Shown here piece after piece: positions 3,440 to 38,078 of a stretch of 47,186 bases of DNA. Source of the stretch: Nitrospinota bacterium (GTDB taxonomy: Bacteria; Nitrospinota_A; UBA7883; JADGGD01); contig JADGCD010000002.1 of NCBI GenBank assembly GCA_015229165.1, positions 1 to 47,186 of the forward strand, read 5' to 3'. A program made the translations under genes and the position numbers. Position 1 is the stretch's first letter; each line of letters opens with the position of its first letter. The notes beneath the pieces were generated by a model. The model worked only from the letters and a program-made list of their open reading frames with translations, was not told the origin of the DNA and did no database searches.

Positions 3440-3476
3440 CGTGTCCTCTTACCCGTTGACAGCGTACCGGCGGCCG

Positions 3477-5854: not shown

Positions 5855-5867
5855 GGTGTTCTCTCTC

Positions 5868-6368: not shown

Positions 6369-6401
6369 TTCTTCTCTGTCGTCTTCGCTTTGGGCGGGTC
6401 G

Positions 6402-6983: not shown

Positions 6984-7087
6984 ACCCAGTCCGTTCGTTT
7001 CGTTTCGTCCGTTCGTTTCGCCGAAAGAATCCTGGCCGGTTTCTTTCAACGTCGCCCCCCAGGCCCGTGGCCGGAGGGGCTCCCCCG

Positions 7088-9405: not shown

Positions 9406-9963
9406 TTAGTTGCGCGGCCCGATCAGCGGCTGGCGGGCGGTCTTCTCGTAATCTTTGCGCAGGGGATGCCCCTGAAAGGCCTCGTACAAAAGGATGCGGC
9501 GCAGGTCGGGGTGGCCCCGGAAGACGACGCCGTACAGGTCCCACGCCTCCCGCTCGAGCCAGTCGGCGCCGACCCAGAGGGAGGTGACGGAGTTGATCTG
9601 GGGGGTGGCGGCCGCGAGAGGCGCCTTGACCCGGATCCGGTGGTTCTTGCCGACGGAGTAGAGGTGGTAGACCACCTCGTAGCGGGCGCCGCTCTCCTTC
9701 AGGTAGGGCTGCAGCGGGGCCGACGCGGGGCGGACCCCTTTCTTCGTCCAGTAGTCGACCACGGTGACGTCGAGGATGATGTCGAAATCGAGCGCCGGGT
9801 CGGACTTGAGGAAGTCCATGACGGTCAGGATTTCGTCGGCCCGGACGACGACGGTGTCGTCTCCCTTGAAGCTGTGGGTGAACAGGAGGGTGTCCCCTTT
9901 CTGGAAGCGGGCCTTGACCCGCGCCATCAGCGGCGACTCCTTGGCGGTCTCTTTTGCGCTCAT
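9406..9963 (-). CDS. nuoC: NADH-quinone oxidoreductase subunit C (30-kDa subunit)
   Basis: A 185-aa protein located between nuoB and nuoD, with ...WLEREAWDLYGVVFRGHPDLRRIL... typical of NuoC. Confidence 0.92.
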   Translation of the reverse strand: MSAKETAKESPLMARVKARFQKGDTLLFTHSFKGDDTVVVRADEILTVMDFLKSDPALDFDIILDVTVVDYWTKKGVRPASAPLQPYLKESGARYEVVYHLYSVGKNHRIRVKAPLAAATPQINSVTSLWVGADWLEREAWDLYGVVFRGHPDLRRILLYEAFQGHPLRKDYEKTARQPLIGPRN

Positions 9964-15574: not shown

Positions 15575-15642
15575 GGCTTGGAAAACCTCCACTGGGACAG
15601 ACGCTTCCCCGTCACGAGTGTCACGGGAAGCATGGAGCACGT

Positions 15643-15672
15643 TTTATATCGTTAAACCTTGTCCAAAGTCAA
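15643..15672 (-). promoter_or_regulatory. candidate sigma70 promoter for nuoF-nuoG
   Basis: On the minus strand: TTGACT (15667-15672), an 18-nt spacer, then TATAAA (15643-15648). It sits between the obg stop and the nuoF start. Confidence 0.4.
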
Positions 15673-15699
15673 GCGTTCCATTCCCCGGTATTCCCCTGT

Positions 15700-16914
<1,215 letters not shown>

Positions 16915-21134: not shown

Positions 21135-21154
21135 AGAATCGACCTATATTTTAT

Positions 21155-21272
21155 ATGAAATATCAACGAAGTGTCAGCAACTGTCAACTTTGACACTTAG
21201 CCCCCCTCAGCCCAGCGAAAAATGGCATATCATGAAATATAAACAAAGTGTTAGCAACTGTCAACTTTGACA
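21155..21272. repeat. two copies of a 41-bp direct repeat (38/41 identical), 77-bp period
   Basis: Copy 1 (21155-21195): ATGAAATATCAACGAAGTGTCAGCAACTGTCAACTTTGACA. Copy 2 (21232-21272): ATGAAATATAAACAAAGTGTTAGCAACTGTCAACTTTGACA. Both lie in the AT-rich spacer between the fic start and the comM stop. Confidence 0.9.
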
Positions 21273-21328
21273 GCTGCCTCATTCTCCACCACCTGTCACT
21301 TATTGTCAACAACTGTCAATTATGACAG
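21181..21328. promoter_or_regulatory. array of three 16-bp palindromes, CTGTCA-N4-TGACAG (= CTGT-N8-ACAG); putative operators upstream of fic
   Basis: O1 at 21181-21196 is CTGTCAACTTTGACAC. O2 at 21258-21273 is CTGTCAACTTTGACAG. O3 at 21313-21328 is CTGTCAATTATGACAG. Extra TGTCA half-sites occur at about 21172, 21293 and 21303. O1 overlaps a minus-strand TTGACA that could serve as the fic -35. Confidence 0.5.
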
Positions 21329-21353
21329 TTACTGACTAGCAACATACATTAAA

Positions 21354-22889
21354 TCAAAGGTTATCCCTGTCAAGGCTCCGGTACTGCACCGCTTCGGAGA
21401 GGTGCATCGCCTCGATCTTCTCTTTCCCGGCCAAGTCGGCGATCGTCCGGGCGACTTTCAGAATCTTCTCGTGCGCCCGGGCGGAGAGCCCCAGCCGGTC
21501 AACGGCGGTCTTGAGCAACTGCCGCGACGGTTCGTCGAGGACGCAATGTTTCCTGGTCTCCTTGTTCCCCATCCGGGCGTTGGCGTAGATGCCGCTTCCG
21601 GCGAACCGGGCAAGCTGGATGTCCCGCGCCCTGTTCACACGGGCCCGAATGGCGGCGGACGACTCGCCGGGAGGACTCTCCATCATCTGCTGGTACTTCA
21701 CCGCCGGGGCCTCCACATGCAGGTCGATCCGGTCGAGGAGCGGACCGGATATGCGGCTCCGGTATTTGCGGATCATGTGGCCGGTGCAGCCGCATTCCTT
21801 GTCGGGGTCGGTGTAGTAGCCGCAGGGGCAGGGGTTCATGGCGGCCAGCAACATGAACCGACAGGGATAGGTGACGCTCATGGCGGCCCGGCTGATGGTG
21901 ACGGTCCCCTCCTCCAGCGGCTGGCGCATCACTTCCAACACGTTCCGACGAAACTCCGGCAGCTCGTCGAGAAACAGCACCCCGTTATGCGCCAACGATA
22001 CTTCGCCGGGGATGGGGGTGGTCCCCCCGCCGATGAGCCCGGCGTCGGAGATGGTGTGATGCGGCGACCGGAACGGGCGGCGGACCACCAGCGCCCGGCG
22101 CCCTTCGAGCTTTCCGGAGACGCTGTGTATCCGCGTCGTCTCCACCGCTTCGTCGTAGGTGATGTCGGGGAGTATGGTGGGGAGCCGCTTGGCCATCATC
22201 GACTTGCCGGAGCCGGGAGGGCCGATGAGGAGCGCGTTATGCCCGCCGGCGGCGGCTACCTCCAAGGCCCGTTTGACGTGCCCCTGTCCTTTCACGTCGG
22301 CGAAATCGTCGTCGTACCCGGCGCCGATCCCCTGCGCGAAAAGGGAGGGGGCGTGGATGGTGGTGGGGGTGAGGGCCAGTTTTCCCGACAAGTACTCCAC
22401 CACCTGCGGCAGCGAATCGACGCCGATGACGGTGACCCCCTCGGCCACCGCCGCCTCTTCGGCGTTCTCCGCCGGGACGACGATCCGGGCCACCCCCCGG
22501 TCCCGCGCCAGCAGGGCCAGTGAAATGATCCCCCGCACCGGCTTGACCCGGCCGTCGAGAGCCAGCTCGCCGAAGAACATGCTGTCGGCGAGGTCGGCGT
22601 CGAGTATCCCGTCGGCCTGCAGGATCCCCAGGGCGATGGGGAGGTCGAATGCGGCGCCCTCCTTTCGCACGTCGGCGGGGGCGAGGTTGACGGTGATCCG
22701 TTTGACCGGACATTCGAACCCGGCGTTGGCGATGGCGGCCAGAATCCGCTCCTGCGACTCCCGGATGGCGGTGTCGGGGAGGCCGACGGTGGCGTAGGCG
22801 AAGACTCCCGGCGCCAGATTGACCTCCACCTCCACCGGAAAGGCGGAGACGCCGAAGACGGAGGCGCTCTGGGCGCGGGCGACGGGCAT
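21354..22889 (-). CDS. comM: YifB/ComM family Mg-chelatase-like AAA+ ATPase
   Basis: A 511-aa protein from [14 protein letters not shown] (ATG at 22887-22889). It has an N-terminal Lon-protease-like domain, Walker [10 protein letters not shown], and a C-terminal Mg-chelatase subunit ChlI-like region. Confidence 0.92.
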
Positions 22890-22958
22890 CGGGAGGTCCT
22901 TAAAGTATAAAATGGCTTCGCCATCGTAGAGCGGCCCCGGGGAGGGTGTCAACCATCC

Positions 22959-22986
22959 TTGCTCTTCGTAAGCGGTATAGTATAAT
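22959..22986 (+). promoter_or_regulatory. candidate sigma70 promoter of the DUF262-HEPN operon
   Basis: TTGCTC (22959-22964), a 16-nt spacer, then a perfect TATAAT (22981-22986). GAGGAAG lies 8 nt upstream of the ATG at 23039. Confidence 0.5.
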
Positions 22987-23038
22987 AATTACCGAGCGGC
23001 ACGTCTGACATTTTCACTATTTAGAGGAAGTGAACATC

Positions 23039-24154
23039 ATGCTTTCCGACGAGATTACAATAACACAGCGTCAAGTTCGAACAGATGCATATCAAATGTC
23101 GATTGGCGAAATCGTCAGCATGTACGAAAAGTCTGAAATTATTGTTGACCCGGAGTTTCAGCGCCTATTTCGATGGAAGATTAGCCAGAAAACAAAGCTA
23201 ATTGAATCCATACTTCTTGGGATACCGTTGCCATCCATTTTTGTCTTTGAAAAAGACGATGGCACTTGGGAATTGATTGATGGCCTTCAAAGAATCTCCA
23301 CAATTCTAGAATTCATGGGCATTTTGAAATCACCTGAAGGGAGTTTGCTACCTCCATCCATTCTTGAATCCACTAAATACTTACCCTCACTTCATAATGC
23401 CGTTTGGGAAAGGTCAAAGGAGATTGTCGATACATTATTGAAGGAGCAGATGCCATTCGACAAGTCGCAGCAACTTGCTATCAAACGTAGCCGAATTGGA
23501 GTTGAGATTCTTAAACGGCCTAGCGATGATCAAGCAAAATACGATCTGTTTCAAAGACTAAATGCTGGTGGAACTTTGGCAAATGCGCAAGAACTGCGCA
23601 ACTGCATTATTCTAATGATAAATAGGAAGTATTTCCATGCAATAAAGAAAGTCGCTGATAGCCCTCATTTCCGGAGAGTAATTTCCGTGACAGAGGAGCA
23701 GGTTGAAAAGCAAAGGCATTTGGAAATGGCGGTGCGATTCCTAGTTCATGTCAACATTGATTATGATGGGAAGCTGGATGTCGAAGAGTATATTGATGAG
23801 GGTATCATTGAGTTATCTAGACTTGGGAAAGGCAAATCTGCCGCCGACTTAATCGATAAAACATTTAGGATACTCGATGATATTGCAGGGGAAAATGCTC
23901 TGAAGCGCTTCCAAAGAGGCAGCTACACTGGAAAGGTAGGCCTTGTTGGCTTAGAGGGTATTGCTGTTGGCATTGGAAAGAATATTGATGCAATTTCCGA
24001 TCTTGCCCCTATTAAAGCTAAAAAGTTTATTGAAGATAGAATCAAAAAATTCTGGTCTGCTCCTGAGTGCGAAAGCTTCACCTCACCTGGGCTACGTGGC
24101 ACAACTCGTATCCAAAGAACAGTGCCATTTGGCCATAAATGGTTTCGACCATGA
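23039..24154 (+). CDS. DUF262 (ParB/Srx-fold, GmrS-like) domain protein, stand-alone with no DUF1524/HNH half
   Basis: A 371-aa protein (ATG at 23039; the track starts 9 nt earlier at a GTG). Signatures: PEFQRLFRW, DGLQR (23279-23293), FQRLNAGGTLANAQELRN. GC is about 40%. Confidence 0.85.
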   Translation: MLSDEITITQRQVRTDAYQMSIGEIVSMYEKSEIIVDPEFQRLFRWKISQKTKLIESILLGIPLPSIFVFEKDDGTWELIDGLQRISTILEFMGILKSPEGSLLPPSILESTKYLPSLHNAVWERSKEIVDTLLKEQMPFDKSQQLAIKRSRIGVEILKRPSDDQAKYDLFQRLNAGGTLANAQELRNCIILMINRKYFHAIKKVADSPHFRRVISVTEEQVEKQRHLEMAVRFLVHVNIDYDGKLDVEEYIDEGIIELSRLGKGKSAADLIDKTFRILDDIAGENALKRFQRGSYTGKVGLVGLEGIAVGIGKNIDAISDLAPIKAKKFIEDRIKKFWSAPECESFTSPGLRGTTRIQRTVPFGHKWFRP

Positions 24155-24798
24155 GCAAACCATATACTGGAGAAGATTTTTCTGCTCAAATCATTGATGA
24201 CAGAAATTGGCGAATAAAGGAGATTTCAGACTTAAAATCGGCGATCAAGAGTGGAGACTCGAGATTGCAGAAGGTCCTGTTACGCTCTTTAGTCACTATC
24301 TGCTATGCGCACTGGGAGGGATATATTAGATTTGCAGCCAGAAAGTATATGGAGCATGTATCACTTCGAAGAATGCCTTACAGTGCGCTGGAACCACAAT
24401 TTCTTAAGAATTATTTCCTGCCCCGATTAGCTGCGCTTTCCACTTCCAGGACAAGCATCAAAGAGCGGTGTGAACTTATTACCGAAATTCTTCAAGCATC
24501 AGAGCGGCGCTTCAGTTATGTCAACAATGATCTCATTAACACAAAGGCTAACTTAAACTTTGAGGTTTTTGCTGATATTTGTCTTGTCTGTGGACTTCCA
24601 ATATCCGATTTTGGTGGCCAGTCCACCTTTATTGACGTCCTCCTATTGAAGCGTCGGAACTCCATTGCCCATGGAGAGGAAACTTTCGTTCATATTGACG
24701 ACTTGGACGAATTGGCAGATAGTACCATTTCGCTGATGCGCGCCTTCGGTGACTCTCTTGAAAACAGGGTGGTTTTGCAGACATTCAAGGTAAATTAG
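24151..24798 (+). CDS. HEPN-like putative RNase (Rx4H motif RNSIAH)
   Basis: A 215-aa protein starting MSKPYTGEDF. Its ATG overlaps the DUF262 stop as ATGA (24151-24154). The R-N-S-I-A-H motif is at 24655-24672. The sequence looks helical and low in GC. From memory it resembles the MAE_28990/MAE_18760-type HEPN family. Confidence 0.7.
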   Translation: MSKPYTGEDFSAQIIDDRNWRIKEISDLKSAIKSGDSRLQKVLLRSLVTICYAHWEGYIRFAARKYMEHVSLRRMPYSALEPQFLKNYFLPRLAALSTSRTSIKERCELITEILQASERRFSYVNNDLINTKANLNFEVFADICLVCGLPISDFGGQSTFIDVLLLKRRNSIAHGEETFVHIDDLDELADSTISLMRAFGDSLENRVVLQTFKVN

Positions 24799-28452: not shown

Positions 28453-30042
28453 TTACGCCACGATCGACAGAAGCCCTTCGTGCCGCGGATCGCGGCCCGA
28501 GGGGGCGTTGGCTTCATCGGTTTCAATGGTCGACGCGGCGTCGGCGCCCCGGTTCCGCCCGGCGCCGTGGGCGCCGTTGCGTCCGTCGGCCTGGGCCTGT
28601 CCGAAGGCCATTCCCTGCCGCTCGTCGGCGGTGACGACGGTCAGTTCGTCGACCTTCATCCCGGCGTTGGAAAGCTGCTGGCGCAGCTGGTCGAGGTTGC
28701 GTTCGATGGCCGCTTTCACTTCGGGGCTCTCGGCCACCATGATGGCTTTCACGGAGTCGTCTTTCACCATCACCCGCATGTCGATCTTCCCGAGATGGGG
28801 GGGGTCGAGCCGCATGGTCATCTGGGAGGCGCCGTTGGGGCGGAAGCCGATCCGGGCTTTCTCGACCACCTGCGCCATCACCAGCCGCTCGAAATCGCGC
28901 CGGGGGGCGGCGGCCCGCTCGCTCTTCTCCAGCGCTTCGGCGGAGGCGGCCTCCCCTTTGGCGGCGGTGTTGGCGACACCGGTGGTGTCGGTCGATCCGG
29001 CGCGGGGAGCGGCGGCGCTCCCCTTGTCGGCGGAGGCGGCGGCGGCGGCCGGAGCGGTCACAAGCTTCCCGGCGGCCTCCTGCTCGGCGCCCTTGGCGGC
29101 CTGTTCGGCGGCGGGCGTCTGGGGAGCGGCGGCCTGCGTCTTGGCGGCGGCTTTCTCTTTCGACCCGTCAAGGGCGGCTTCCTTCATGGCGGCCCGCGAC
29201 TCGGTGTCGGCCAGCGAGGAGACCATCCCTTCCGGGCGGGCCTCTTTTTTCGATTCGGGGTTCCCCTGACCCTGCTGATCCTTGGGCGTGTCGGTCGACT
29301 GCTCCTGCCGGGCTTCCTGCGGGCGAACCTCGGCGGTCGGCTGTTTGGCGGAGGCGTTCTCCTGCCGGACTTCCTGCGGGCGGGCTTCGGCGACGGGGGC
29401 CTTGACCGTTTCGGTCTCGACCTCGTCCTGCGCCAGCTCGGCGTTCCCGCCGACGTTGTCGATGGCGACCGCATCATCCTTACCGGTGAGAACCAAAAGG
29501 CTCTGGGCGGTCTGGGCCAGATCCCCCTGGGCCAGTCCGTTTTTCAGCTCTTCGGAGACGGCCACATCCAGATTCATCGACTGGGCGAACTGGCCGATCT
29601 CCTCGCCGGTGAATCCGAGCTGGGTCAGGAAGTCGTTCATGCTCATCTGCCCGGCCTGCTCCATGAGAGCGGCGTAGGCGTCGGGGTTCTCGGCCTTGAG
29701 CTGGTCGAGACGGGCCATGATCTTGGCGGCCATGGCGTCGGCGGAAAGGGCCGGTTTCTCTTCGGCGTCCCGATCGTCCTGGGAGGCGCTTTCGGCTTTC
29801 TGCGACTTGTCGCTCTTGACGGCCCGCTGGTCGTCGCCCCGGTCGTCGTCGGTCTCTTTGGCTTCAGGGCGGGGGGAGGAGGTTTCCCGGGGCGTAACGT
29901 TCTGGTCGTTCTTCTGGACGGAGGCGAAGATTGCGGCGAAAGACTGATCGGCGACGGCGCCTTGGGCGGCCCCACCGGCGAAAGAGCCGACAACGCCACG
30001 GGCGGCGCCAGCCAGCAGGTCGGTCATCAGCGATTCGATCAT
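28453..30042 (-). CDS. fliK: flagellar hook-length control protein FliK
   Basis: A 529-aa protein from MIESLMTDLL (ATG at 30040-30042, with a GGAGAA SD). It has a low-complexity Ala/Glu/Gln/Pro-rich centre and a C-terminal Flg_hook domain (MRLDPPHLGKIDMRVMV...LRQQLSNAGMKV). Confidence 0.85.
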   Translation of the reverse strand: MIESLMTDLLAGAARGVVGSFAGGAAQGAVADQSFAAIFASVQKNDQNVTPRETSSPRPEAKETDDDRGDDQRAVKSDKSQKAESASQDDRDAEEKPALSADAMAAKIMARLDQLKAENPDAYAALMEQAGQMSMNDFLTQLGFTGEEIGQFAQSMNLDVAVSEELKNGLAQGDLAQTAQSLLVLTGKDDAVAIDNVGGNAELAQDEVETETVKAPVAEARPQEVRQENASAKQPTAEVRPQEARQEQSTDTPKDQQGQGNPESKKEARPEGMVSSLADTESRAAMKEAALDGSKEKAAAKTQAAAPQTPAAEQAAKGAEQEAAGKLVTAPAAAAASADKGSAAAPRAGSTDTTGVANTAAKGEAASAEALEKSERAAAPRRDFERLVMAQVVEKARIGFRPNGASQMTMRLDPPHLGKIDMRVMVKDDSVKAIMVAESPEVKAAIERNLDQLRQQLSNAGMKVDELTVVTADERQGMAFGQAQADGRNGAHGAGRNRGADAASTIETDEANAPSGRDPRHEGLLSIVA

Positions 30043-30082
30043 GGTATTCTCCGCTTCCGTGGTATCTGTTCGTTTGGACAAC

Positions 30083-30097
30083 CGTATCCATAACAAG
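30083..30097 (-). promoter_or_regulatory. candidate sigma54 (-24/-12) promoter for fliK-flgD-flgE
   Basis: On the minus strand: TGGCAC-AGCCC-TTGT. The spacing is canonical, but the -12 element reads GT rather than GC. It lies about 40 nt upstream of the fliK ATG. Confidence 0.4.
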
Positions 30098-30317
30098 GGC
30101 TGTGCCAAAATAGATGAGCGCATGCAATGTAAATAAAATCAACTATATACATTTGCCATGTCGCCTAAAGTTTTCCCGCCAACCTGCCGACGGGGCAAGA
30201 ATGAACCGCTTCTTTCCATTCCGCTTTGGGAGACAAGGCATTTTTTTCCCACACGGCGCTTTCTCGCAATCCGCTATGGGGAAATGGGGGCGCCCCCCTT
30301 CCTAACCGGAAGAATAC

Positions 30318-30347
30318 TTGACAATATCGCTAAGGTTTCCTTACTAT
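30318..30347 (+). promoter_or_regulatory. candidate sigma70 promoter of the sulfur-carrier operon
   Basis: TTGACA (30318-30323), an 18-nt spacer, then TACTAT (30342-30347). This leaves a leader of about 165 nt before the thrC-like GTG. Confidence 0.35.
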
Positions 30348-30521
30348 CGATTCAAACAACGGTGGTTTTCGGGACAATACGAAAAGCGCCGGGGTTTGTC
30401 CGGCTGGCGCTTTCATAAATACGACCGGATTAGTCTGAATTGGCGACGATGTTCTTTATAGAGAGGGCTCTTTGAACATGACCGACGTATCGACCATCGG
30501 GCCGACGCCCCGGAGGAAGCC

Positions 30522-31763
30522 GTGAGCTTCGTTCTCGGCCTCAAATGCCGCGAGTGCGGCCGCGAATATCAGCAGGAGCCGATCCACGTCTGCGAATTCT
30601 GCTTCGGCCCCCTGGAGGTGCGCTACGACTACGCCGCCATCGGCCGCTCCATCAGCCGGGAGGCGATCACCAAACGGCCCGCGTCGATGTGGCGCTACCG
30701 GGAGCTGATCCCCATCGACCGCGACCCGGTGGTGGGGCTGGACAACGGCTTCACGCCGCTGGTCCACGCGAAGAACCTGGGGCGCCTTCTCGGCATGCCG
30801 AACCTCTACATAAAGAACGACGCGGTCTGCCATCCGACCCTCTCTTTTAAAGACCGGGTGGTGGCGGCGGCGGTGAACAAGGCGATGGAGTTCGGCTACG
30901 ACACGGTGGCCTGCGCCTCGACGGGGAACCTGGCCAACTCGGTGGCGGCCCACGCGGCGGCGGCGGGGATGAAGGCTTACATCTTCATCCCGTCGGATCT
31001 CGAAGCGGGGAAGGTGTTGGGCTCGTCGATCTACGAACCGAACATCCTCGGCATTGACGGTAGCTACGACGACGTGAACCGCTTCTGCTCGGAGGTGGCG
31101 GCGGTCTACAAGTGGGCGTTCGTGAACATCAACATCCGCCCCTTCTACGGCGACGGGTCGAAGACCTACGGCTACGAGATCGCCGAGCAACTCGGCTGGA
31201 GGGCGCCCGACGCCTACATCTCGCCGGTGGCCGGGTCGAGCCTGATTACGAAGATCTACAAGGCGTTCAAGGAATTCGAACAGCTCGGGCTTCTCGAAGA
31301 CGAGGTAAAGACCAAAGTCTACGCGGCGCAGGCCACCGGATGCTCGCCGGTGACGACGGCCATCAAGGCGGGGAAGACGGAGTTCACCCCGGTGAAACCG
31401 AACACCATCGCCAAGTCGATCGCCATCGGGAACCCGGCGGACGGCTACTACGGCATCAAGGTGGTCAACAGCACCGGCGGCTGGGGCGAAGACGTGACCG
31501 ACAACGAGGTGATCGAAGGAATGCGGCTCCTGGCCCGGACAGAGGGGATCTTCACCGAAACGGCAGGGGGCGTGACGGTGGCGGTCACCAAGAAGCTGCT
31601 CGAACAGGGGAAGCTCGACCCGGAAGGGGTCACGGTGATCGCCATCACCGGGCAGGGGCTGAAAACCCGCGAGGCGGTGGCGGATCTGCTGACGCCGCCG
31701 ACGATCATCGAACCGAAACTGGGCGCTTTCGAGGCGACCATGAAAAAAAACCGGTGGCAGTAA
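30522..31763 (+). CDS. threonine synthase-family PLP enzyme with an N-terminal Zn-ribbon
   Basis: A 413-aa protein with a GTG start preceded by GGAGGAAG. It has CRECG...CEFCFG and the PLP-lysine motif HPTLSFKDR. Whether it is a true ThrC or a sulfur-carrier-dependent homocysteine-forming homologue cannot be decided from the sequence alone. Confidence 0.88.
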   Translation: MSFVLGLKCRECGREYQQEPIHVCEFCFGPLEVRYDYAAIGRSISREAITKRPASMWRYRELIPIDRDPVVGLDNGFTPLVHAKNLGRLLGMPNLYIKNDAVCHPTLSFKDRVVAAAVNKAMEFGYDTVACASTGNLANSVAAHAAAAGMKAYIFIPSDLEAGKVLGSSIYEPNILGIDGSYDDVNRFCSEVAAVYKWAFVNINIRPFYGDGSKTYGYEIAEQLGWRAPDAYISPVAGSSLITKIYKAFKEFEQLGLLEDEVKTKVYAAQATGCSPVTTAIKAGKTEFTPVKPNTIAKSIAIGNPADGYYGIKVVNSTGGWGEDVTDNEVIEGMRLLARTEGIFTETAGGVTVAVTKKLLEQGKLDPEGVTVIAITGQGLKTREAVADLLTPPTIIEPKLGAFEATMKKNRWQ

Positions 31764-31791
31764 AGCCGACCACGAAGGAGATGTACAAGAC

Positions 31792-32097
31792 ATGGCGACC
31801 GTGAAGGTGCGGATTCCCACCCCGTTGCAGAAGTTGACCAAAGGGGTCGGTGAGGTGCAGGGGAACGGCGGGACGATCAAGGAGGTGTTCGGCGATCTGG
31901 AGGCCCAGTTTCCCGGCATCCGCTCGCGGCTGTACGACGAGGAGGGGAACCTTCGACGCTTCATCAACGTGTATGTGAACGAAGAGGATATCCGCTTCCT
32001 TGAAGGGGAAGCGACCGGCCTGAAGGACGGGGACGACATATCGGTGATCCCGGCCATCGCCGGCGGCGCCCCTACGCGGGGCGGCGAGCTCCGCTGA
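31792..32097 (+). CDS. MoaD/ThiS-family sulfur-carrier protein, CysO-like, with a 9-residue tail after the Gly-Gly
   Basis: A 101-aa protein. ...RFINVYVNEEDIRFLEGEATGLKDGDDISVIPAIAGG-APTRGGELR. The core closely recalls M. tuberculosis CysO (RFVNIYVNDEDVRF...ILPAVAGG). Confidence 0.85.
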   Translation: MATVKVRIPTPLQKLTKGVGEVQGNGGTIKEVFGDLEAQFPGIRSRLYDEEGNLRRFINVYVNEEDIRFLEGEATGLKDGDDISVIPAIAGGAPTRGGELR

Positions 32098-32283
32098 CGC
32101 GCCCGGCAAGGCGCCGGGTGCGCCGGTTCCCCTGACGGGAACTATGCGGCCCCCTTGTTAGTCGCGGCAGGTCTATCTTCGCCACACCTGCCCGGCATTG
32201 ATAAAGCGACAGGAAAAAATCCTTTCGCGACAGTGAGATCGAATCGCCATCAAGGCGGTTGACGTTAAACGTGAGGCTTTGAC

Positions 32284-33114
32284 ATGGACTTCACCGAAGA
32301 CCAGATTCATCGGTATGCGCGGCATATCATCCTCCCCGAAGTGGGGGGGGTCGGGCAGCAGAAGCTGCTCGACGCGAAAGTCCTCTGCCTCGGGGCGGGG
32401 GGGCTCGGGTCGCCGATCCTGCAATACCTCGCGGCGGCGGGGGTGGGAACCATCGGCGTGGCCGATTTCGACACCGTCGACATGAGCAACCTGCAGCGGC
32501 AGATCATCCACAACTCCGACCGGGTGGGGATGCTCAAGGTCGATTCCGCCAAGGAGTTCATCGCCAAGCTGAACCCCGACGTCAACGTCATCACCTTCAA
32601 CACCCACCTGAACGCCAGCAACGCCGAAGAGATCATCGGCCAGTTCGACATCGTGGTGGACGGGTGCGACAACTTCCCCACCCGCTATCTGGTCAACGAC
32701 GTCTGCGTCTTCCAGAACAAGCCCAACGTCCACGGCTCCATCTTCCGCTTCGACGGACAGGTGACGGTGTTCAAGCCGAAAGTCGGCCCCTGCTACCGCT
32801 GCCTCTACCCCGAGCCGCCCCCTCCCGGCATGGTTCCGTCGTGCCAGGAGGGGGGGGTGCTGGGCGTCCTTCCCGGCGTCATCGGCTGCCTGCAAGCGGT
32901 GGAGACGATCAAGCTGATCCTCGGCAAAGGGGATGCGCTGGTCGGGAAGCTTCTGCTGTACAACGCCATGGGGGCCGAAGTGCGAAAGCTGAACATCCGG
33001 CGCGACGTCACCTGCCCGGTCTGCGGCGACCACCCGACCATCACCGAGCTGATTGACTACGAGCAGTTCTGCGGCGTCCCGGCGGTGGAAGCCCCCCACG
33101 GCGAGAGTTGCTGA
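32284..33114 (+). CDS. MoeB/ThiF/HesA-family E1-like adenylyltransferase (no rhodanese domain)
   Basis: A 276-aa protein with RYARHIILPEVGGVGQQKL, the nucleotide loop GAGGLGSP, and the Zn site CYRC...CPVCG. It ends about 25 aa after the Zn site. Confidence 0.9.
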   Translation: MDFTEDQIHRYARHIILPEVGGVGQQKLLDAKVLCLGAGGLGSPILQYLAAAGVGTIGVADFDTVDMSNLQRQIIHNSDRVGMLKVDSAKEFIAKLNPDVNVITFNTHLNASNAEEIIGQFDIVVDGCDNFPTRYLVNDVCVFQNKPNVHGSIFRFDGQVTVFKPKVGPCYRCLYPEPPPPGMVPSCQEGGVLGVLPGVIGCLQAVETIKLILGKGDALVGKLLLYNAMGAEVRKLNIRRDVTCPVCGDHPTITELIDYEQFCGVPAVEAPHGESC

Positions 33115-33419
33115 TGCGCCTCACCATCACCCTACAGTCCGGGCGGGCGAGCCTGCACGTCAACAGCGTGGTCAGGCTGGCCAAAGCCGCCCGGACCAAG
33201 GGGCACGCGGTCACGATCTTCCTCATGGCCGACGGCGTCACCTGTCTGGCCGAACCGTCGCTGTTGGCGCTGGCGGGGGAGGGGGTCGTCCTCTCGGTCT
33301 GCGAACATAACCGAAGCCAGTACGAAGCCCCGGCCGGGATCGAAACCGTCCGTTACGAGAGCCAGTACGAATTCGCCGGCTTCGTGGCGGACGCCGACCG
33401 GACCGTCGGGTTCTTTTAG
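33114..33419 (+). CDS. DsrE/TusD-family small sulfur-relay protein
   Basis: A 101-aa protein from MRLTITLQSG. Its ATG overlaps the moeB-like stop as TGATG. It has a conserved-looking Cys in VLSVCEHN and ends ...VGFF. Confidence 0.65.
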   Translation: MRLTITLQSGRASLHVNSVVRLAKAARTKGHAVTIFLMADGVTCLAEPSLLALAGEGVVLSVCEHNRSQYEAPAGIETVRYESQYEFAGFVADADRTVGFF

Positions 33420-33464
33420 GAACCGTCTCTACCGGAGGCGAACGGTGGGAACGAGTAGACGGTC

Positions 33465-33594
33465 TTGGCCGACTGACACCTGCGCGGGCGAAGAACGCGC
33501 CTGGTCGACAACGTCAGGAAAAGGACACCCGCAGGGTGTTGGCCGACTGATACCTGCGCGGGCGAAGAACGCGCTTGGCAGATAACGTTAGGAA
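33465..33594 (+). repeat. two copies of a 56-nt element (50/56 identical) inside the operon, separated by a small hairpin
   Basis: Copy 1 at 33465-33520 and copy 2 at 33539-33594. Both read TTGGCCGACTGA(C/T)ACCTGCGCGGGCGAAGAACGCGC(C/T)TGG...AACGT(C/T)AGGAA. Each contains a GCGCG-N9-CGCGC stem. The spacer carries CACCC-GCA-GGGTG. Confidence 0.85.
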
Positions 33595-33603
33595 GCTAAA
33601 AAC

Positions 33604-33945
33604 GTGGGCGAGCGAAAAATCACCGTCGTCATCAGCGAATGCCCCTCGCCGCTGGTGGCCGAGCGGTTGCGGATGGGGGTGGGGCTGACGCTTGAAGACG
33701 GCAACAAGGTGCGCATTCTCTTCACTGACGGAGGGATTTACGCCGTCTCCGGCATCGACCGGGAGCGGGGCCGGTTCGACCTCGACCGGCATCTGGAGAT
33801 GTTCAACCTCATGGAGCTGCCGGTCTACTTTCACGCCCCCTCGGCCGCGGCCCGGGGGATCGCCATCGACCGGAAAGGGTTCGCCCCCGTCGACGACGAC
33901 GGCGCCGCCGCCCTGCTGCGGGAGAGCGACGTGGTTCTCGGTTGA
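33604..33945 (+). CDS. DsrF/TusC-like (DsrE/F family) protein
   Basis: A 113-aa protein with a GTG start, reading KITVVISECPSPLVAERLRMGVGLTLEDGNKVRILFTDGGIY... The size and pattern fit the DsrE/F family. Confidence 0.6.
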   Translation: MGERKITVVISECPSPLVAERLRMGVGLTLEDGNKVRILFTDGGIYAVSGIDRERGRFDLDRHLEMFNLMELPVYFHAPSAAARGIAIDRKGFAPVDDDGAAALLRESDVVLG

Positions 33946-33983
33946 GAGCCGCTCCCCCCAAACGAGCTGACAGGAGAAACTGA

Positions 33984-34958
33984 GTGGAAAAGATCATCCA
34001 GGGCCCCCGGTTGGCGGAGAGCGCCCGGGTCCGGTCGGAAGACCTGAACGAGAGCATCCTGCAAAAGATCGGGAGCACGCCGCTGCTCGATTTCAGCAAG
34101 ATCGCCCGGAGCGAATGCCCCAACGTGGAGATCTACGCCAAGGCGGAGTGGTTCAACGCGGGGGGATCGGTAAAGGCCCGCCCCGCGCTGAACATGATCG
34201 AAGAAGGGGAGCGCGCCGGGAAACTCAAGCCGGGGATGACCATTCTCGACTCCACCTCCGGCAACACCGGCGTCGCCTACGCCCTCATCGGCATGGTGAA
34301 GGGGTACCACGTCAAGCTGGTGATGCCGCAAAACGTCTGCGGCGAGCGAAAGCAGCTCATGAGCGCCGCCTATCACGCGGAGATCGTCTATTCGTCGCCG
34401 CTGGAAGGGTCCGACGGGGCGATCCTGCTCTGCCGCGAGATCTACCGCCAGAACCCCGATCTCTACTTCTGGCCCGACCAGTACAACAACCCGGCCAACT
34501 GGCAGGCCCACTACAAGACCACCGCCGAAGAGATCTGGAGACAGACCGGCGGGAAGGTGACCCATTTTCTGGCGGGGCTTGGCACCTCCGGCACCGCCAT
34601 GGGAACCAGCCGGGGGCTGAAGGAGCGGTTCGACAAGGGGATCAAGTGCTACGGCATCGAACCGGCGGAGACCCTGCACGGTATCGAAGGGCTCAAGCAT
34701 ATGGACAGCTCCATCGTGCCGGGGATATACAATAAGGAAGAGCTGGACGGCATCGTCTCGGTGGCCACCGAGGAGGCCTACGAGATGACCGCCCGGATCC
34801 AGCGGGAATACGGCCTCAACGTCGGCACCTCCTCCGGCGCCGCCATCGCCGGGGCGGTGAAGCTGGGCAAGACCCTCACCGGAGGGGTGCTGGTGACGGT
34901 CCTCCCCGACTCGTGCGACTGCGAAGCCACCACCGGCGGCCATTGCGCCAAGGATTAG
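33984..34958 (+). CDS. cysM: cysteine synthase-family PLP enzyme (CysM/CysK-like)
   Basis: A 324-aa protein with a GTG start and AGGAG 7 nt upstream. Motifs: NAGGSVKARPA (PLP Lys), TSGNTG, GLGTSGT. Confidence 0.9.
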   Translation: MEKIIQGPRLAESARVRSEDLNESILQKIGSTPLLDFSKIARSECPNVEIYAKAEWFNAGGSVKARPALNMIEEGERAGKLKPGMTILDSTSGNTGVAYALIGMVKGYHVKLVMPQNVCGERKQLMSAAYHAEIVYSSPLEGSDGAILLCREIYRQNPDLYFWPDQYNNPANWQAHYKTTAEEIWRQTGGKVTHFLAGLGTSGTAMGTSRGLKERFDKGIKCYGIEPAETLHGIEGLKHMDSSIVPGIYNKEELDGIVSVATEEAYEMTARIQREYGLNVGTSSGAAIAGAVKLGKTLTGGVLVTVLPDSCDCEATTGGHCAKD

Positions 34959-34959
34959 C

Positions 34960-35235
34960 ATGAACGACACCCTCGTTTTGATCACCCGCCCGCTGGCGGA
35001 GGTTCCCGCCGCCAAACGGGCCGCTGCGCTGTCCGTGGCCGCCGAGGCGATCCTGCTCGAAAACGGGGTCTACACCACCGCCGCCGAGGCCCACGCGGCG
35101 GGGCTCGACGCCGCGACCCTCTGGGTCGTCACCGACGACGCCGACGCCCGCCGGGTCACCTCCCCCTTTCCCGGCGTCGGCTGGGACGGGGTGGTCGACG
35201 CCATCGAACGAAACCGCGCCGTCATCACGCTGTAA
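34960..35235 (+). CDS. DsrH/TusB-like protein
   Basis: A 91-aa protein with ...AILLENGVY... and a C-terminal ...AVITL. The size and motif fit TusB/DsrH. Confidence 0.55.
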   Translation: MNDTLVLITRPLAEVPAAKRAAALSVAAEAILLENGVYTTAAEAHAAGLDAATLWVVTDDADARRVTSPFPGVGWDGVVDAIERNRAVITL

Positions 35236-35246
35236 CGGAGGAGCCC

Positions 35247-35489
35247 ATGAGCATCGTCCCCGACCACGAAATCGACATCCGGGGGGAGCACTGCCCCTAC
35301 ACCTTCGTGAAATCGAAGCTGAAAATGGAGACGCTGGCGCCGGGGGAGGTGCTGCGCATCGTCACCGACCACGAACCGGCCACGAAAAACGTCCCCCGCT
35401 CCATGGAGAGCGAAGGGCACGAGATATTGCTCCACCCCCACAAGGTGAACGACACCGACTGGGAGTTCTTCGTCAAGAAAAACGGCTGA
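35247..35489 (+). CDS. TusA/SirA-like sulfurtransferase
   Basis: An 80-aa protein with DIRGEHCPYTFVKSKL (the Cys-Pro motif at the start of helix 1). Confidence 0.75.
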   Translation: MSIVPDHEIDIRGEHCPYTFVKSKLKMETLAPGEVLRIVTDHEPATKNVPRSMESEGHEILLHPHKVNDTDWEFFVKKNG

Positions 35490-35511
35490 GCCACCCGAGG
35501 AACACCGACCG

Positions 35512-36006
35512 ATGAGCCTTCGCTACTTCTCCGTCACCGGCAGCCCCGAGCTGATCAAGGAACCGGTCCTCTTCACCCTGGTCAAACGCCACGGCCTGAC
35601 GGTCAACGTCTACCGGGCCCACATCGACCAGGACAAGAGCTGGATCATCGTCTCCCTCGACGGGAGCGACGCCGCCGTCGACGCCGCCATCCTGGACATC
35701 ACCTGCCGGGGCGCCATCGCCGCCGAAGGGGGGATCGAGATGCTCGAAACCGGCGAGCCGACCCGGGTCATCACCCTGCGCGTCCGGCTCACCTTCCCCC
35801 CGTCGGAAGTGAAAAAGCCGGTCTTCACCGAGATCGTCCGCCGGTTCAACGTGGTCATCAACGTCCGCCGGGCCGCCATCAACAACGACCGGGGGTGGGC
35901 CGACTGGGAGATCGCCGGGCCGGTGGACGAGGTCGACGCCGCGCTGGCGGCGGTCCGTCAGACGGGGGTCGGGGTGGCGCCGGTCGAAGGGAACGTCATC
36001 GAGTAA
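35512..36006 (+). CDS. tandem NIL-domain protein
   Basis: A 164-aa protein with two similar halves: ...GLTVNVYRAHIDQDKSWIIVSLDGSDAAVDAAILDI... and ...RFNVVINVRRAAINNDRGWADWEIAGPVDEVDAALAAV.... These resemble the MetN C-terminal NIL fold. Confidence 0.6.
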   Translation: MSLRYFSVTGSPELIKEPVLFTLVKRHGLTVNVYRAHIDQDKSWIIVSLDGSDAAVDAAILDITCRGAIAAEGGIEMLETGEPTRVITLRVRLTFPPSEVKKPVFTEIVRRFNVVINVRRAAINNDRGWADWEIAGPVDEVDAALAAVRQTGVGVAPVEGNVIE

Positions 36007-36010
36007 CGCA

Positions 36011-36475
36011 ATGCGGATCTCCACCAAGGGACACTACGCCGTCCAGGCGCTGGTCGACATCGCCGCCCGGCCCGAGAAAAAGCCGGTGTCGCTGGCGGTC
36101 GTCGCCGACGGGCAGGGGCTGTCGCAGAACTATCTGGAGCAGCTCTTCGTGAAGCTGCGCAAGGCCGGGCTGGTCAAATCGGTCCGGGGCCCCGGCGGGG
36201 GATACCTCATCGCCCGCTCCCCCTCCTCCATCACCATCGGCGAGGTCTTCGCCGCCGTGGACGAATCGCTGATCCTGACCGACTGCGGTGACGAGGGGCC
36301 CACCGGTTGCGGCGGGGGAGAGAACGACCAGACCCGCAAGTTGTGGCAGAAGCTGTGCCACCACTTCAACGAGTTGCTCTACTCCATCACCATCGACCAT
36401 GTGGTGAAAGGGGACGTGAAACTCCCCCGGATCGGGGGACCGCTTCCCGGCGCCGCCGTCATCCGCATCGCCTGA
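36011..36475 (+). CDS. Rrf2-family transcriptional regulator (IscR/CymR-like, three clustered Cys)
   Basis: A 154-aa protein with MRISTKGHYAVQALVDIA...LSQNYLEQLFVKLRKAGLVKSVRGPGGGY and Cys residues in LTDCGDEGPTGCGG...KLCHHF. Confidence 0.9.
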   Translation: MRISTKGHYAVQALVDIAARPEKKPVSLAVVADGQGLSQNYLEQLFVKLRKAGLVKSVRGPGGGYLIARSPSSITIGEVFAAVDESLILTDCGDEGPTGCGGGENDQTRKLWQKLCHHFNELLYSITIDHVVKGDVKLPRIGGPLPGAAVIRIA

Positions 36476-36587
36476 CCGCCCCCCCTGGGATTCGTCCGGT
36501 TCCGGACAAAGAGGGGGTCGGCGCTCCAATTAACCGTTCCTTAACCATCTTTTCCCCCGTTCGGGCCTACTATCACGGTAGGTCAAC

Positions 36588-38078
36588 ATGAAAAGCGGTG
36601 CGGTCATGGAGGAGTATCGGCAGGCGGCCCCTCTCGGCTTTCTGACCTATGGCGTCCCCCCCCTCTTCCTTTCCGGCGCGGCGGCCAACCTCGTCGTCGG
36701 CGCCCCTCTCTCCGCGGTCCTGCTGGGGGGGGCTTCGGTGGCCCTCTACCTGATCGGGGCCGCCAGCCTGCGGGAGGTGGTGGGCCGGGAACGGATGACC
36801 CGCAACCTGGTGCAGGCCCAGCAGATCGGACGGCTCGGCTGCTGGGAATGGAACATCACCGGCGGCGAGCTCTTCTGGACCGACGAGGCCGACCGGATCT
36901 TCGGCTTTCGCTCCTTCGACATGCGGGGGGACATCGACCTTCTCCTGCAGGCGATCCACCCCGACGACCGGGAGCGGTTCAACGAATCGCTCCGACGGAC
37001 CGCCGCCACCGGCGAAAGCCTCGACCTGCTCCACCGGACCATCGGCCGTCAGGGGGTGGTCCGCTACGTCCACACCCGGGCCGAGGCGATTATCGACCGA
37101 CGGACGCTCGCGCCGGTGGCGGTCACCGGCGCCGTCCACGACATCTCCAGCCGGGTTCACGAGGTGGAAAAGCTGCGGCTCCACGCGGCGGTCTTCGAGA
37201 ACACCTCGGAAGGGATCCTGATCATGGACCGGTACGGCGTCATCGAGGCGGTCAACCCGGCCTTCCTGAAGATGACCGGCCACACGAAGCGGGAGCTGCT
37301 GGGGGGAAAGCCGGGGGCCTTGCTGGAGAAGGGGAGGGGGAACGAGTCGTTCTACCACCCCCTGTGGGAGCGGGTCCTGCGGGAAGGCTGTTTCCGGGGA
37401 GAGGTGGCGACCCTGCGCAAGGACGGGACCATCGTTCCCACCGATCTCTACGTCAACACGGTCCTCGACTGGGACGGCTCCCCCCTGCGGTTCGTGGCGA
37501 TCTACACCGACATCACCGCCCGCAAGGAATACGAGGAGAACCTGAAACGGCTCCTGGTCACCGACCCGCTGACCGGCGTGGCCAACCGGCGGGCCTACGA
37601 CGAGCAGATGGACGAGGAGTGGCGCCGGGGAATCCGCCACCGGACGGAACTGTGCCTTCTGATGATCGACATCGACCATTTCAAGACTTTCAACGACACC
37701 TTCGGCCATCAGGAGGGGGATCGGTGTCTCCGGCTGGTGGCCCAGTCGATCAGGAGCGTGGTCAACCGGGCGGGCGATCTGGTGGCCCGCTACGGGGGGG
37801 AGGAGTTCGGCGTCATCCTGCCGGAGACCTCGCTGGCAGAAGGCGCCGCCATCGCCGAAAAGATGCGGGAGGCGGTGGCCCACGATCCCCAAGGGGTCGC
37901 CTTCGAGCGGTGGAACCGGCAGGTGACCGTCTCCATCGGAGTGGCGGCAGTCGTCCCGACCATGGACTACTCCCCCTCCTTCCTCATCGGGCGGGCCGAC
38001 ATCGCCCTCTACCGGGCCAAAAGCGACGGGCGCAACCGGGTTGTCACGACCGAAATGACGGAACACAGGCAAGAATAG
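36588..38078 (+). CDS. membrane-anchored PAS-PAS-GGDEF diguanylate cyclase
   Basis: A 496-aa protein with N-terminal TM segments, two PAS-like regions, and GGDEF domain elements DHFKTFNDTFGHQEGD and GGEEFGVIL. Confidence 0.9.
   Translation: MKSGAVMEEYRQAAPLGFLTYGVPPLFLSGAAANLVVGAPLSAVLLGGASVALYLIGAASLREVVGRERMTRNLVQAQQIGRLGCWEWNITGGELFWTDEADRIFGFRSFDMRGDIDLLLQAIHPDDRERFNESLRRTAATGESLDLLHRTIGRQGVVRYVHTRAEAIIDRRTLAPVAVTGAVHDISSRVHEVEKLRLHAAVFENTSEGILIMDRYGVIEAVNPAFLKMTGHTKRELLGGKPGALLEKGRGNESFYHPLWERVLREGCFRGEVATLRKDGTIVPTDLYVNTVLDWDGSPLRFVAIYTDITARKEYEENLKRLLVTDPLTGVANRRAYDEQMDEEWRRGIRHRTELCLLMIDIDHFKTFNDTFGHQEGDRCLRLVAQSIRSVVNRAGDLVARYGGEEFGVILPETSLAEGAAIAEKMREAVAHDPQGVAFERWNRQVTVSIGVAAVVPTMDYSPSFLIGRADIALYRAKSDGRNRVVTTEMTEHRQE

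Follow-up and report, generated by a model that had tools for sequence, protein, structure and literature searches.

A Nitrospinota operon that merges two putative thiocarboxylate-dependent amino acid pathways with a candidate TusA/DsrE'F'H' sulfur relay

A 47,186-nucleotide stretch of DNA from a Nitrospinota bacterium (GenBank assembly GCA_015229165.1, contig JADGCD010000002.1; hereafter the window) carries ten collinear plus-strand genes at 30522-36475. In order, they encode a ThrC-like pyridoxal 5'-phosphate (PLP) enzyme, a CysO-like sulfur carrier, a MoeB/ThiF-type E1 adenylyltransferase, DsrE-like and DsrF-like subunits (DsrE' and DsrF'), a CysM-like PLP enzyme, a DsrH-like subunit (DsrH'), a TusA-family sulfurtransferase, a tandem NIL protein, and an Rrf2-family regulator. 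On balance, we consider it probable that this operon directs protein-thiocarboxylate-dependent synthesis of both sulfur amino acids, fed by a TusA/DsrE'F'H' relay. Judged by its gene content, the operon is a merger of MetM/MetO and CysO/CysM pathway logic, which is already established; what makes it unusual is the addition of a divergent DsrE'F'H' set with TusA, of a protein with two NIL domains, and of a regulator of the Rrf2 family. The ten gene identities had been listed in an initial annotation of the window made from the sequence alone, and open reading frames (ORFs), Pfam and NCBIfam profiles, hhalign comparisons, and a structural model of DsrE' all agree with them.

That annotation had also proposed surveying the synteny of the gene set across genomes. 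The survey found the same order in 11 Nitrospinota loci besides the window (L001, L005, L086, L088, L090, L093, L094, L096, L097, L104, and L105), at 43-93% protein identity, and this recurrence is far beyond chance. L001 is assembly GCA_016208975.1, L104 is GCA_942491805.1, L005 is Nitrospinaceae OFTM379, and the L086-L097 set consists of metagenome contigs; L105 has all ten genes plus an additional PALP gene. The nearest relatives of the ThrC-like protein all come from Nitrospinota metagenome-assembled genomes (MAGs), with the L104 protein 93% identical to that of the window, and flagellar hook genes lie upstream of the operon in the window, L001, and L104 alike.

For the wider survey, an alignment of the ThrC-like protein was scanned over one genome per species. 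At least 600 stretches matched, the best 80 loci were kept, and their six-frame ORFs were searched with the ten window proteins. These best 80 loci include Nitrospinota, Nitrospirota, Mariprofundaceae, Planctomycetota, Acidobacteriota, Cyanobacteria, Aquificae, Rokubacteria, Binatia, and others. Neighbors were counted in 48 of them, from more than 10 phyla, each species-representative and with at least 4 kb on either side of the ThrC-like gene. A CysO-like carrier gene was adjacent to the gene for the ThrC-like relative (55-80% identical) in 43 of the 48 loci; nearby we also found an E1 (29 loci), a CysM-like gene (27), a NIL gene (23), a JAB protease (14), an Rrf2 gene (5), TusA (4), and a DsrE/F/H set (1). 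The core of ThrC-like enzyme, carrier, rhodanese-less E1, and CysM-like enzyme is therefore a widespread and known kind of module. The initial annotation had drawn attention to a single carrier gene with a ThrC-like enzyme on one side and a CysM-like enzyme on the other; the layout is real, but it is not special, because a CysM-like gene is present in 27/48 loci and one carrier beside two PLP enzymes is thus ordinary for this module family.

The first two genes of the operon, which lie 28 nt apart, resemble a pair from Streptomyces albulus. There, the ThrC homologue MetM and the thiocarboxylate of the carrier MetO convert O-phosphohomoserine to homocysteine (Hasebe et al. 2024, as cited in the GapMind 2026 preprint and in PMC12172450). 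The two systems have in common the need for an E1 and a ThrC homologue gene directly 5' of that of a ubiquitin-fold carrier, whose Gly-Gly end is in some cases extended by further residues. MetM homologues are often misannotated as threonine synthases (GapMind 2026 preprint). In Microcystis aeruginosa, a homologue whose gene adjoins a MetO-like one reportedly shares 51.6% identity with S. albulus MetM (PMC12172450), and cyanobacterial members of our set are 57-58% identical to the window ThrC-like protein. We therefore file the first two genes as MetM/MetO-like and regard the ThrC-like protein as a putative homocysteine synthase. The comparison with MetM/MetO had been suggested in the initial annotation, and the adjacency and the cyanobacterial homologues speak for it. 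A cysteate synthase identity was rejected for either PLP enzyme (TIGR03844, 51 bits against a cutoff of 325; NF053679, 155 against 600).

The carrier was initially called CysO-like, and its best match in the PDB is indeed Mycobacterium tuberculosis CysO (3dwg_C, E=1e-21), with an alignment running through the ...AGG end. This S(I/V)(I/V)PA(I/V)AGG end is near-invariant over about 75 loci. Among these carriers, Gly-Gly is terminal in 32, followed by tails of 1-12 residues in about 35, and followed by a fused NIL domain in 7; the carrier of the closest relative ends Gly-Gly-Cys. Because nine residues follow Gly-Gly in the window carrier, processing of this protein would be required.

The CysM-like enzyme, a putative carrier-dependent cysteine synthase, scores 314 bits with TIGR01138, under the cutoff of 394. 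It is 39% identical to M. tuberculosis CysM and has Lys at the position of Arg220, which we take to be the phosphate-recognizing residue for O-phosphoserine in the mycobacterial enzyme. Its C terminus (34890-34958) reads LPDSCDC. The operons with the relay conserve LPD(S/T)C(E/D)C at this end, and the CysM proteins of relay-less Nitrospinota end FPDSC(D/E)RC; the usual CysK/CysM motif here is PDxGxRY. The enzyme thus lacks the C-terminal tail of M. tuberculosis CysM and has C-x-C instead.

Pfam gave no Rhodanese match in the window E1, and the alignment to NF005902 (MoeZ) is confined to positions 15-280 of 392. The protein has two CxxC pairs, a loop cysteine in PSCQEGG, and a C-terminal cysteine in ...YEQFCG, and the FCG motif is kept in the rhodanese-less E1s of Nitrospinota, L040, L050, and L098. 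As a side observation, the cysteine in ELIDYE(Q/E)FCG (window 33060-33114 and orthologues) could be a persulfide-accepting tail of these rhodanese-less enzymes. Among nine neighboring E1s scanned, which were long or second E1s, a single one carries a rhodanese domain, and we rejected such domains as a general sulfur source. Separately, a Syntrophobacterales MetM-like locus (L024, 14099-15166) has a carrier-E1 fusion (ThiS plus ThiF, in a 356-residue ORF) and a separate rhodanese-ThiF protein.

These three proteins correspond to parts of the CysO-CysM-Mec-MoeZ pathway of M. tuberculosis, which the initial annotation had invoked. The CysO-like carrier and an E1 of the MoeB/MoeZ family resemble their counterparts there, and the CysM-like enzyme has a basic residue at the Arg220 position. 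Unlike in that pathway, the E1 lacks the MoeZ rhodanese domain, no Mec is present in the window, and the carrier has its nine-residue tail.

The assignment of the DsrE', DsrF', and DsrH' subunits rests on profile and structure comparison. In hhalign, alignments of the window orthologues matched the Pfam-validated set of a Thermodesulfobacteriota locus (L040) one to one (probabilities: DsrE, 98.9%; DsrF, 98.2%; DsrH, 96.7%), with cross pairs at 61% or less. A profile search of the PDB with DsrE' returned Allochromatium vinosum DsrE as the best match, and the AlphaFold (AF2) model of DsrE', with a predicted local distance difference test score (pLDDT) of 87.3, has template modeling (TM) scores of 0.80-0.81 to YchN and to DsrE of A. 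vinosum DsrEFH (2hy5_A, 0.80). The sole conserved cysteine of DsrE', Cys65 (in 103-residue numbering from a TTG at 33108), is invariant in 19 orthologues and aligns with active-site Cys79 of the canonical L040 DsrE (the Cys78 equivalent). As in DsrEFH of A. vinosum and TusBCD-TusA-TusE of Escherichia coli, there are three paralogous subunits in the order E-F-H, a cysteine only at the DsrE/TusD site, and a TusA with a Cys-Pro motif. Unlike those systems, the window subunits are short (~100 residues) and divergent, and they stand in an assimilatory context; the presumed acceptor is the ubiquitin-fold carrier with its E1 rather than DsrC or a tRNA-thiolation enzyme.

Members of the DsrE' family are rare: when 1.84 billion cluster representatives were searched exhaustively with a profile, 105 matched at E<=0.001 and 10 at E<=1e-10. 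Of the 19 loci retrieved from metagenomes with DsrE' as the seed, 16 have E1, CysM, or ThrC-like genes alongside. In L098, L050, and L101, the order is Rrf2, MetM-like, CysM, JAB, carrier-NIL fusion, E1, DsrE', DsrF', and an 88-residue ORF, continuing in L098 with a sulfate symporter, DsrE2, TusA, and ATP sulfurylase. The L040 locus encodes Rrf2, a MetM-like enzyme, a small NIR_SIR/ferredoxin sulfite reductase, TusA, a carrier-NIL fusion, E1, CysM, JAB, DsrE', DsrF', and DsrH'. At 5663-7813 it holds the divergent and canonical DsrEFH sets in tandem, followed by TusA, a DsrK/HdrD-like CCG protein, a GcvH-like (lipoate-protein) gene, and a radical SAM gene; one genome can therefore hold both a divergent, "assimilatory" set and a classical DsrEFH.

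Elsewhere, TusA is joined to sulfite reduction. In Mariprofundaceae (L025, L039, L041 at 13817-16156, and L064), a gene directly 3' of MetM-like, carrier, NIL, CysM, and E1 genes encodes a 780-residue assimilatory-type sulfite reductase with two NIR_SIR modules and a C-terminal TusA domain. Assimilatory sulfite reductases have been reported to release zero-valent sulfur and not sulfide (PMC13188885). A further locus, L100 (963-6939), places DsrE'F' relatives between SerA/SerC-like genes and a YeeE-type transporter with two TusA genes, with no carrier or E1 near. Synteny in three lineages thus supports the proposal that TusA and DsrE'F'H' would bring sulfane sulfur to the E1-carrier pair. The initial annotation had named these proteins as the sulfur supply; DsrE'F' genes beside E1 in two other lineages and the sulfite reductase-TusA fusion strengthen that suggestion, which is drawn from synteny.

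The ninth gene is tied to the carrier. About half of the loci have a NIL gene after that of the carrier, and in seven (L014, L020, L023, L028, L040 at 3020-3535, L050, and L098 at 7639-8166) a carrier-NIL (ThiS-NIL) fusion joins the two right after Gly-Gly, as confirmed by Pfam for two of the seven. A Prok-JAB protease gene is present in each of the seven fusion loci. The fusion and JAB at the same loci therefore imply a polyprotein cut into equimolar carrier and NIL. All 43 NIL matches in other loci, single and fused, align to residues 86-164 of the window protein; by this alignment, its C-terminal half is the orthologue of the single and fused NILs and its N-terminal half a more divergent second copy. 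The AF2 model of the protein shows two beta-alpha-beta-beta-alpha-beta modules, and Foldseek matched it to the tandem ACT domains of the threonine deaminase regulatory domain, SerB2, and the acetohydroxyacid synthase small subunit, as well as to the C-terminal domain of the MetN-type ABC ATPase 2qsw (TMt 0.66). A global fold match was rejected: whole-chain TM scores are 0.3-0.4, the matches hold at the domain level only, and the half-to-half orientation is unreliable.

NIL also occurs as the C2 domain of the methionine importer MetN. A NIL-ferredoxin protein is needed in an unrelated homocysteine pathway that depends on DUF39 (PMC5764234). As in those two proteins, the ACT-like NIL domain is linked here to methionine or homocysteine metabolism; it differs from them in being free-standing and tandem, without an ATPase or ferredoxin domain, and in being tied to the carrier, to which it is fused elsewhere. 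Our best guess, and the least secure step of the scheme, is that the NIL protein may bind methionine or homocysteine and regulate the carrier system as its partner.

Taken together, these data are consistent with a pathway in which the operon would be transcribed from one conserved promoter and probably repressed by the Rrf2 protein encoded at its end. A peptidase encoded outside the window would remove the nine-residue carrier tail to expose Gly-Gly, and the rhodanese-less E1, to judge from its family, would adenylate the carrier C terminus. A persulfide on the TusA cysteine would then pass to the single cysteine of DsrE' within DsrE'F'H' and from there to the carrier acyl-adenylate, giving the thiocarboxylate; this order is suggested by synteny, and the relay would replace the rhodanese domain of MoeZ. 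By homology, the MetM-type enzyme would use the thiocarboxylate and O-phosphohomoserine to form homocysteine, and the CysM-like enzyme would use it with O-phosphoserine or O-acetylserine to form cysteine, after which a hydrolase encoded elsewhere would free the product from the carrier. The tandem NIL protein would act as an ACT-like small-ligand binder, stoichiometric with the carrier and most likely serving as a methionine- or homocysteine-sensing subunit, which is the weakest step.

A more far-reaching version of this pathway is possible, and we hold it only tentatively. In it, inorganic sulfur would at no stage move as free sulfide: TusA would take up zero-valent sulfur, supplied by sulfite reductase or thiosulfate, and pass it through DsrE'F'H' to the E1-bound carrier adenylate. 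The one thiocarboxylate would feed both the MetM-type and CysM-type enzymes. The carrier could not do without NIL, which would accompany it in fixed proportion, be produced together with it as a carrier-NIL polyprotein in other phyla, and tie flux to methionine status. If so, a DsrEFH-type complex would have its first assimilatory role, and free-standing NIL proteins would gain their first function.

Several observations weigh against the thiocarboxylate pathway as we have drawn it. The Pfam scores of the DsrE-, DsrF-, and DsrH-like ORFs (21.4, 19.3, and 17.7 bits) are all under the gathering thresholds; we accept the assignments despite this because of the one-to-one hhalign matches and the DsrE' model. 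DsrH' is cysteine-free, with none conserved in eight orthologues, where A. vinosum DsrH has Cys20, so that it is TusB-like rather than DsrH-like. No DsrC/TusE acceptor was seen among the Pfam-scanned window ORFs, the small ORFs not having been scanned exhaustively, and the window ORF scans found no sulfate-reduction, sulfite reductase, or cysteine desulfurase gene that could feed TusA. The CysO-type and homocysteine paradigm pathways need a JAMM/Mec hydrolase, which matures the carrier and releases the amino acid. Searches of the window ORFs of at least 40 residues (phmmer and a 21-sequence JAB profile, E<=10) returned no JAB/Mec hydrolase, and JAB was likewise not found in any relay-type Nitrospinota locus; the enzyme may be encoded outside the 47-kb window. 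The AF2 model of the NIL protein is of only moderate confidence (pLDDT 68.7). Rfam matched no family, SAM (S-adenosylmethionine) riboswitches included, on the plus strand of 29900-36800 at E<=1.

The link to MetM is also indirect, running by way of the cyanobacterial homologues and not through the sequence of S. albulus MetM itself, and a cyanobacterial homologue had weak threonine synthase and deaminase activities with no clear MetM function (PMC12172450). In S. albulus, a SAM riboswitch has been reported upstream of metM; by comparison with that system, the window has no SAM riboswitch, no E1 rhodanese, and no nearby Mec/JAB. Finally, the position of cysM among the relay genes, after dsrF' and before dsrH', could mean that the relay serves CysM directly.

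This last point is the starting point of the most serious alternative, which we nevertheless think unlikely: the relay would deliver its sulfur, as persulfide or thiosulfonate, directly to the CysM-like enzyme, and the carrier and E1 would serve only the MetM-like enzyme. The distinctive C-terminal C-x-C of CysM in relay-type operons would suit such a transfer, and cysteine synthases have been reported to prefer persulfide or thiosulfate donors (PMC13188885). In addition, L100 ties DsrE'F' to SerA, SerC-like, YeeE, and two TusA genes with no carrier nearby, and L106 has MetM-like, carrier, NIL, JAB, and Rrf2 genes with neither CysM nor a relay. However, the DsrE'F' genes follow E1, not CysM, in L040, L098, L050, and L101; the Mariprofundaceae sulfite reductase-TusA fusion comes after E1; in the window, the E1 stop overlaps the DsrE' start; and the carrier is closest to CysO, the partner of M. 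tuberculosis CysM. We therefore favor delivery to the E1-carrier pair over delivery to CysM.

A second alternative, which we judge very improbable, is that the ThrC-like gene encodes a plain or bifunctional threonine synthase and that the role of the carrier, E1, and CysM is confined to cysteine synthesis of the CysO type. The protein exceeds the family cutoff of TIGR00260 (thrC), the source databases label it threonine synthase, and the weak threonine synthase activity of the cyanobacterial homologue in vitro (PMC12172450) would fit. Against this, the carrier adjacency holds across phyla, often where no CysM gene is present; a second, canonical-type ThrC paralogue lies beside the module in L013, L017, and L019; and the nearest solved relatives are canonical threonine synthases that match at only 159-192 bits and have no Zn-ribbon. 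An Aquifex aeolicus MAG (L048) encodes the Zn-ribbon type, whereas the solved 2zsj, presumably A. aeolicus threonine synthase, is of the 352-residue, ribbon-less type. S. albulus MetM is itself a ThrC homologue of a kind often misannotated.

That the operon instead makes a different thio-metabolite, or conjugates the ubiquitin-like protein to other proteins, and has no part in primary cysteine and methionine synthesis is the least probable account: CysO-like carriers have been co-opted for secondary metabolites (the second-best PDB match of the window carrier is 4n6e_B, which we take to be a BexX/CysO thiosugar complex) and carrier-E1-JAB triads can conjugate proteins, but both PLP enzymes come from amino acid-forming families, the module has been kept by autotrophs across many phyla and adjoins sulfate-assimilation genes, no tailoring, nonribosomal peptide synthetase, or polyketide synthase genes lie near the operon in the window, and the NIL domain is methionine-associated.

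Returning to the thiocarboxylate operon itself, its ten ORFs, at the coordinates first listed (Table 1), have a GC content at third codon positions (GC3) of 0.79-0.90, which is coding-type, in a sequence of 64% GC. The initial annotation had described short gaps or overlaps throughout. This holds for seven junctions of at most 38 nt, including those of E1/DsrE' (a TGATG overlap), CysM/DsrH' (1 nt), and NIL/Rrf2 (4 nt); it does not hold for two gaps of about 185 nt each, between carrier and E1 (32098-32283) and between DsrE' and DsrF' (33420-33603). Terminator prediction gave no convincing plus-strand terminator within the operon. From the coupled or near-abutting junctions, the lack of a convincing terminator, and one conserved promoter, the ten genes most likely form a single transcription unit.

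A promoter scan found TTGACA/TACTAT as the sole sigma-70-like site ahead of the ThrC-like gene. The motif AATACTTGACAAGAACAGTAGG...TAnnAT occurs 5' of the ThrC-like gene in the window and in eight relay-type Nitrospinota loci (L001, L005, L088, L090, L093, L094, L095, and L096), and the remaining intergenic DNA around it is not alignable among those orthologous loci. Within the window it occurs once, with 0.04 chance matches expected. We read the motif as one conserved promoter whose -35 box and spacer may also serve as an operator, probably bound by the Rrf2 protein; the candidate operator over the -35 box is the imperfect palindrome TACTTGACA/AGAACAGTA. A riboswitch or other structured leader was rejected, as there was no relevant Rfam match at E<=1 and the fold z-score of -1.07 is not significant. 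The Rrf2 protein itself is a probable autoregulator of the operon, and Rrf2 genes also accompany MetM-like operons in L020, L023, L024, L028, L040, L050, L098, and L106. Its orthologues have the pattern C-x8-10-C-x5-C, the third cysteine of which is replaced by Asp in the window protein, and its cluster ligation may differ from theirs.

The two wide gaps vary among relatives. The carrier/E1 gap is of similar size in L104, and in L001 the two genes nearly abut. In the other gap, an insertion of about 135 nt that holds two 74-bp direct repeats is missing from L104, the closest relative; a 23-nt core of the repeat, ACCTGCGCGGGCGAAGAACGCGC, is present there in one copy (9681-9703), in the carrier-to-E1 gap instead. 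A Shine-Dalgarno-like AGGAA lies 3' of each copy. The repeat may be a lineage-specific intergenic element, similar to repetitive extragenic palindromic (REP) sequences or miniature inverted-repeat transposable elements (MITE), or a processing site.

Table 1. Coordinates of the operon genes and associated features in the window
Feature	Position	Strand	Supporting details
Sigma-70-type promoter (TTGACA, 18 nt, TACTAT), predicted	30314..30347	+	Promoter scan places the boxes at 30318-30347
5' leader, ~170 nt	30348..30521	+	Sequence varies among orthologous loci
ThrC-homologous PLP enzyme, N-terminal Zn-ribbon CxxC...CxxC	30522..31763	+	PALP, 218 bits; TIGR00260, 274 bits
CysO/MetO-like ubiquitin-fold carrier	31792..32097	+	ThiS, 54 bits; ...VIPAIAGG followed by the 9-residue tail APTRGGELR
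Carrier/E1 intergenic gap, 186 nt	32098..32283	+	No plus-strand terminator predicted
MoeB/ThiF-type E1 adenylyltransferase, 276 residues	32284..33114	+	ThiF, 284 bits; NF006444, 414 bits over the E1 part only
DsrE'/TusD-like subunit	33114..33419	+	ATG overlaps the E1 stop (TGATG); database gene call also starts at 33114
Tandem 74-bp direct repeat in the DsrE'-DsrF' gap, 2 copies, 88% identical	33461..33594	+	Repeat search; fold z-score -3.07
DsrF'/TusC-like subunit	33604..33945	+	LRMxVGLTLED motif conserved; cysteine at position 13 not conserved
CysM-like PLP enzyme, putative carrier-dependent cysteine synthase	33984..34958	+	PALP, 213 bits
DsrH'/TusB-like subunit	34960..35235	+	No cysteine
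TusA-family sulfurtransferase, Cys-Pro motif GEHCPY	35247..35489	+	TusA PF01206, 72.8 bits against a cutoff of 28.6
Tandem NIL (ACT-like) protein, 164 residues	35512..36006	+	NIL PF09383, 71.5 bits in two stretches
Rrf2-family (IscR-like) transcription factor	36011..36475	+	Rrf2 PF02082, 130 bits; TIGR02010 (IscR), 142 bits, under cutoff

Other Nitrospinota have operons of this family with no relay. Two of them (L003 and L107) begin with an extra CysK-like PALP gene and have, as their last gene, a small thioredoxin-like [2Fe-2S] ferredoxin (12434-12769 in L003; 10440-10766 in L107) in place of the relay, NIL, and Rrf2 genes.

The other genes of the window encode complex I, Obg, L21, a small defense island, ThiD, the flagellar hook, a PAS-GGDEF protein, an M48 peptidase, DnaA, and GyrB. 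A region of 55-58% GC (19773-24798) contains a Fic-domain gene (19773-21134), a GmrSD-N restriction-type gene (23030-24154), and a RiboL-PSP HEPN gene (24139-24798). Because in L104 the ComM-like gene is followed directly by a 130-residue ORF and ThiD, the GmrSD/HEPN pair looks like an inserted defense islet. The gap between the Fic and ComM-like genes (21155-21327) holds three direct repeats of about 41 nt with the palindrome TGTCAACTTTGACA, possibly an array of binding sites.

Routes to cysteine or homocysteine that depend on a protein thiocarboxylate are known from a few organisms. A further one is the HcyS/HcyD/HcyF/MetY pathway of Wolinella succinogenes, reportedly described by Krishnamoorthy and Begley in 2011. 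It has in common with the operon a tailed thiocarboxylate carrier that needs cleavage, an E1, and, in loci related to ours, clustering with sulfate assimilation; it differs in that its homocysteine-forming enzyme is MetY where ours is ThrC-like, and no JAMM protease is encoded in the window operon. Compared with MetM/MetO, the operon also holds cysM, DsrE'F'H', TusA, the tandem NIL gene, and Rrf2. The initial annotation knew of no described system with this combination, and we likewise found, in open-access papers and preprints, no description combining TusA or DsrE with a thiocarboxylate, CysO, MoeB, or methionine biosynthesis.

On our reading of the operon, a DsrEFH-like complex would act in assimilation, whereas other members of its family are known to work in sulfur oxidation and tRNA thiolation. 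The operon, the DsrE'F' variants in other phyla, and the fusion of sulfite reductase to TusA name candidate sulfur donors for carriers whose E1 lacks a rhodanese domain. The carrier fusions connect NIL, a domain that is poorly understood, with another homocysteine pathway unrelated to the DUF39 route. The putative assimilatory relay and the two kinds of fusion, sulfite reductase-TusA and carrier-NIL, are each noteworthy for the study of sulfur trafficking. For Nitrospinota, the main marine nitrite oxidizers, the operon predicts how methionine and cysteine may be made, and some proteins annotated as "threonine synthase" are probably misnamed.

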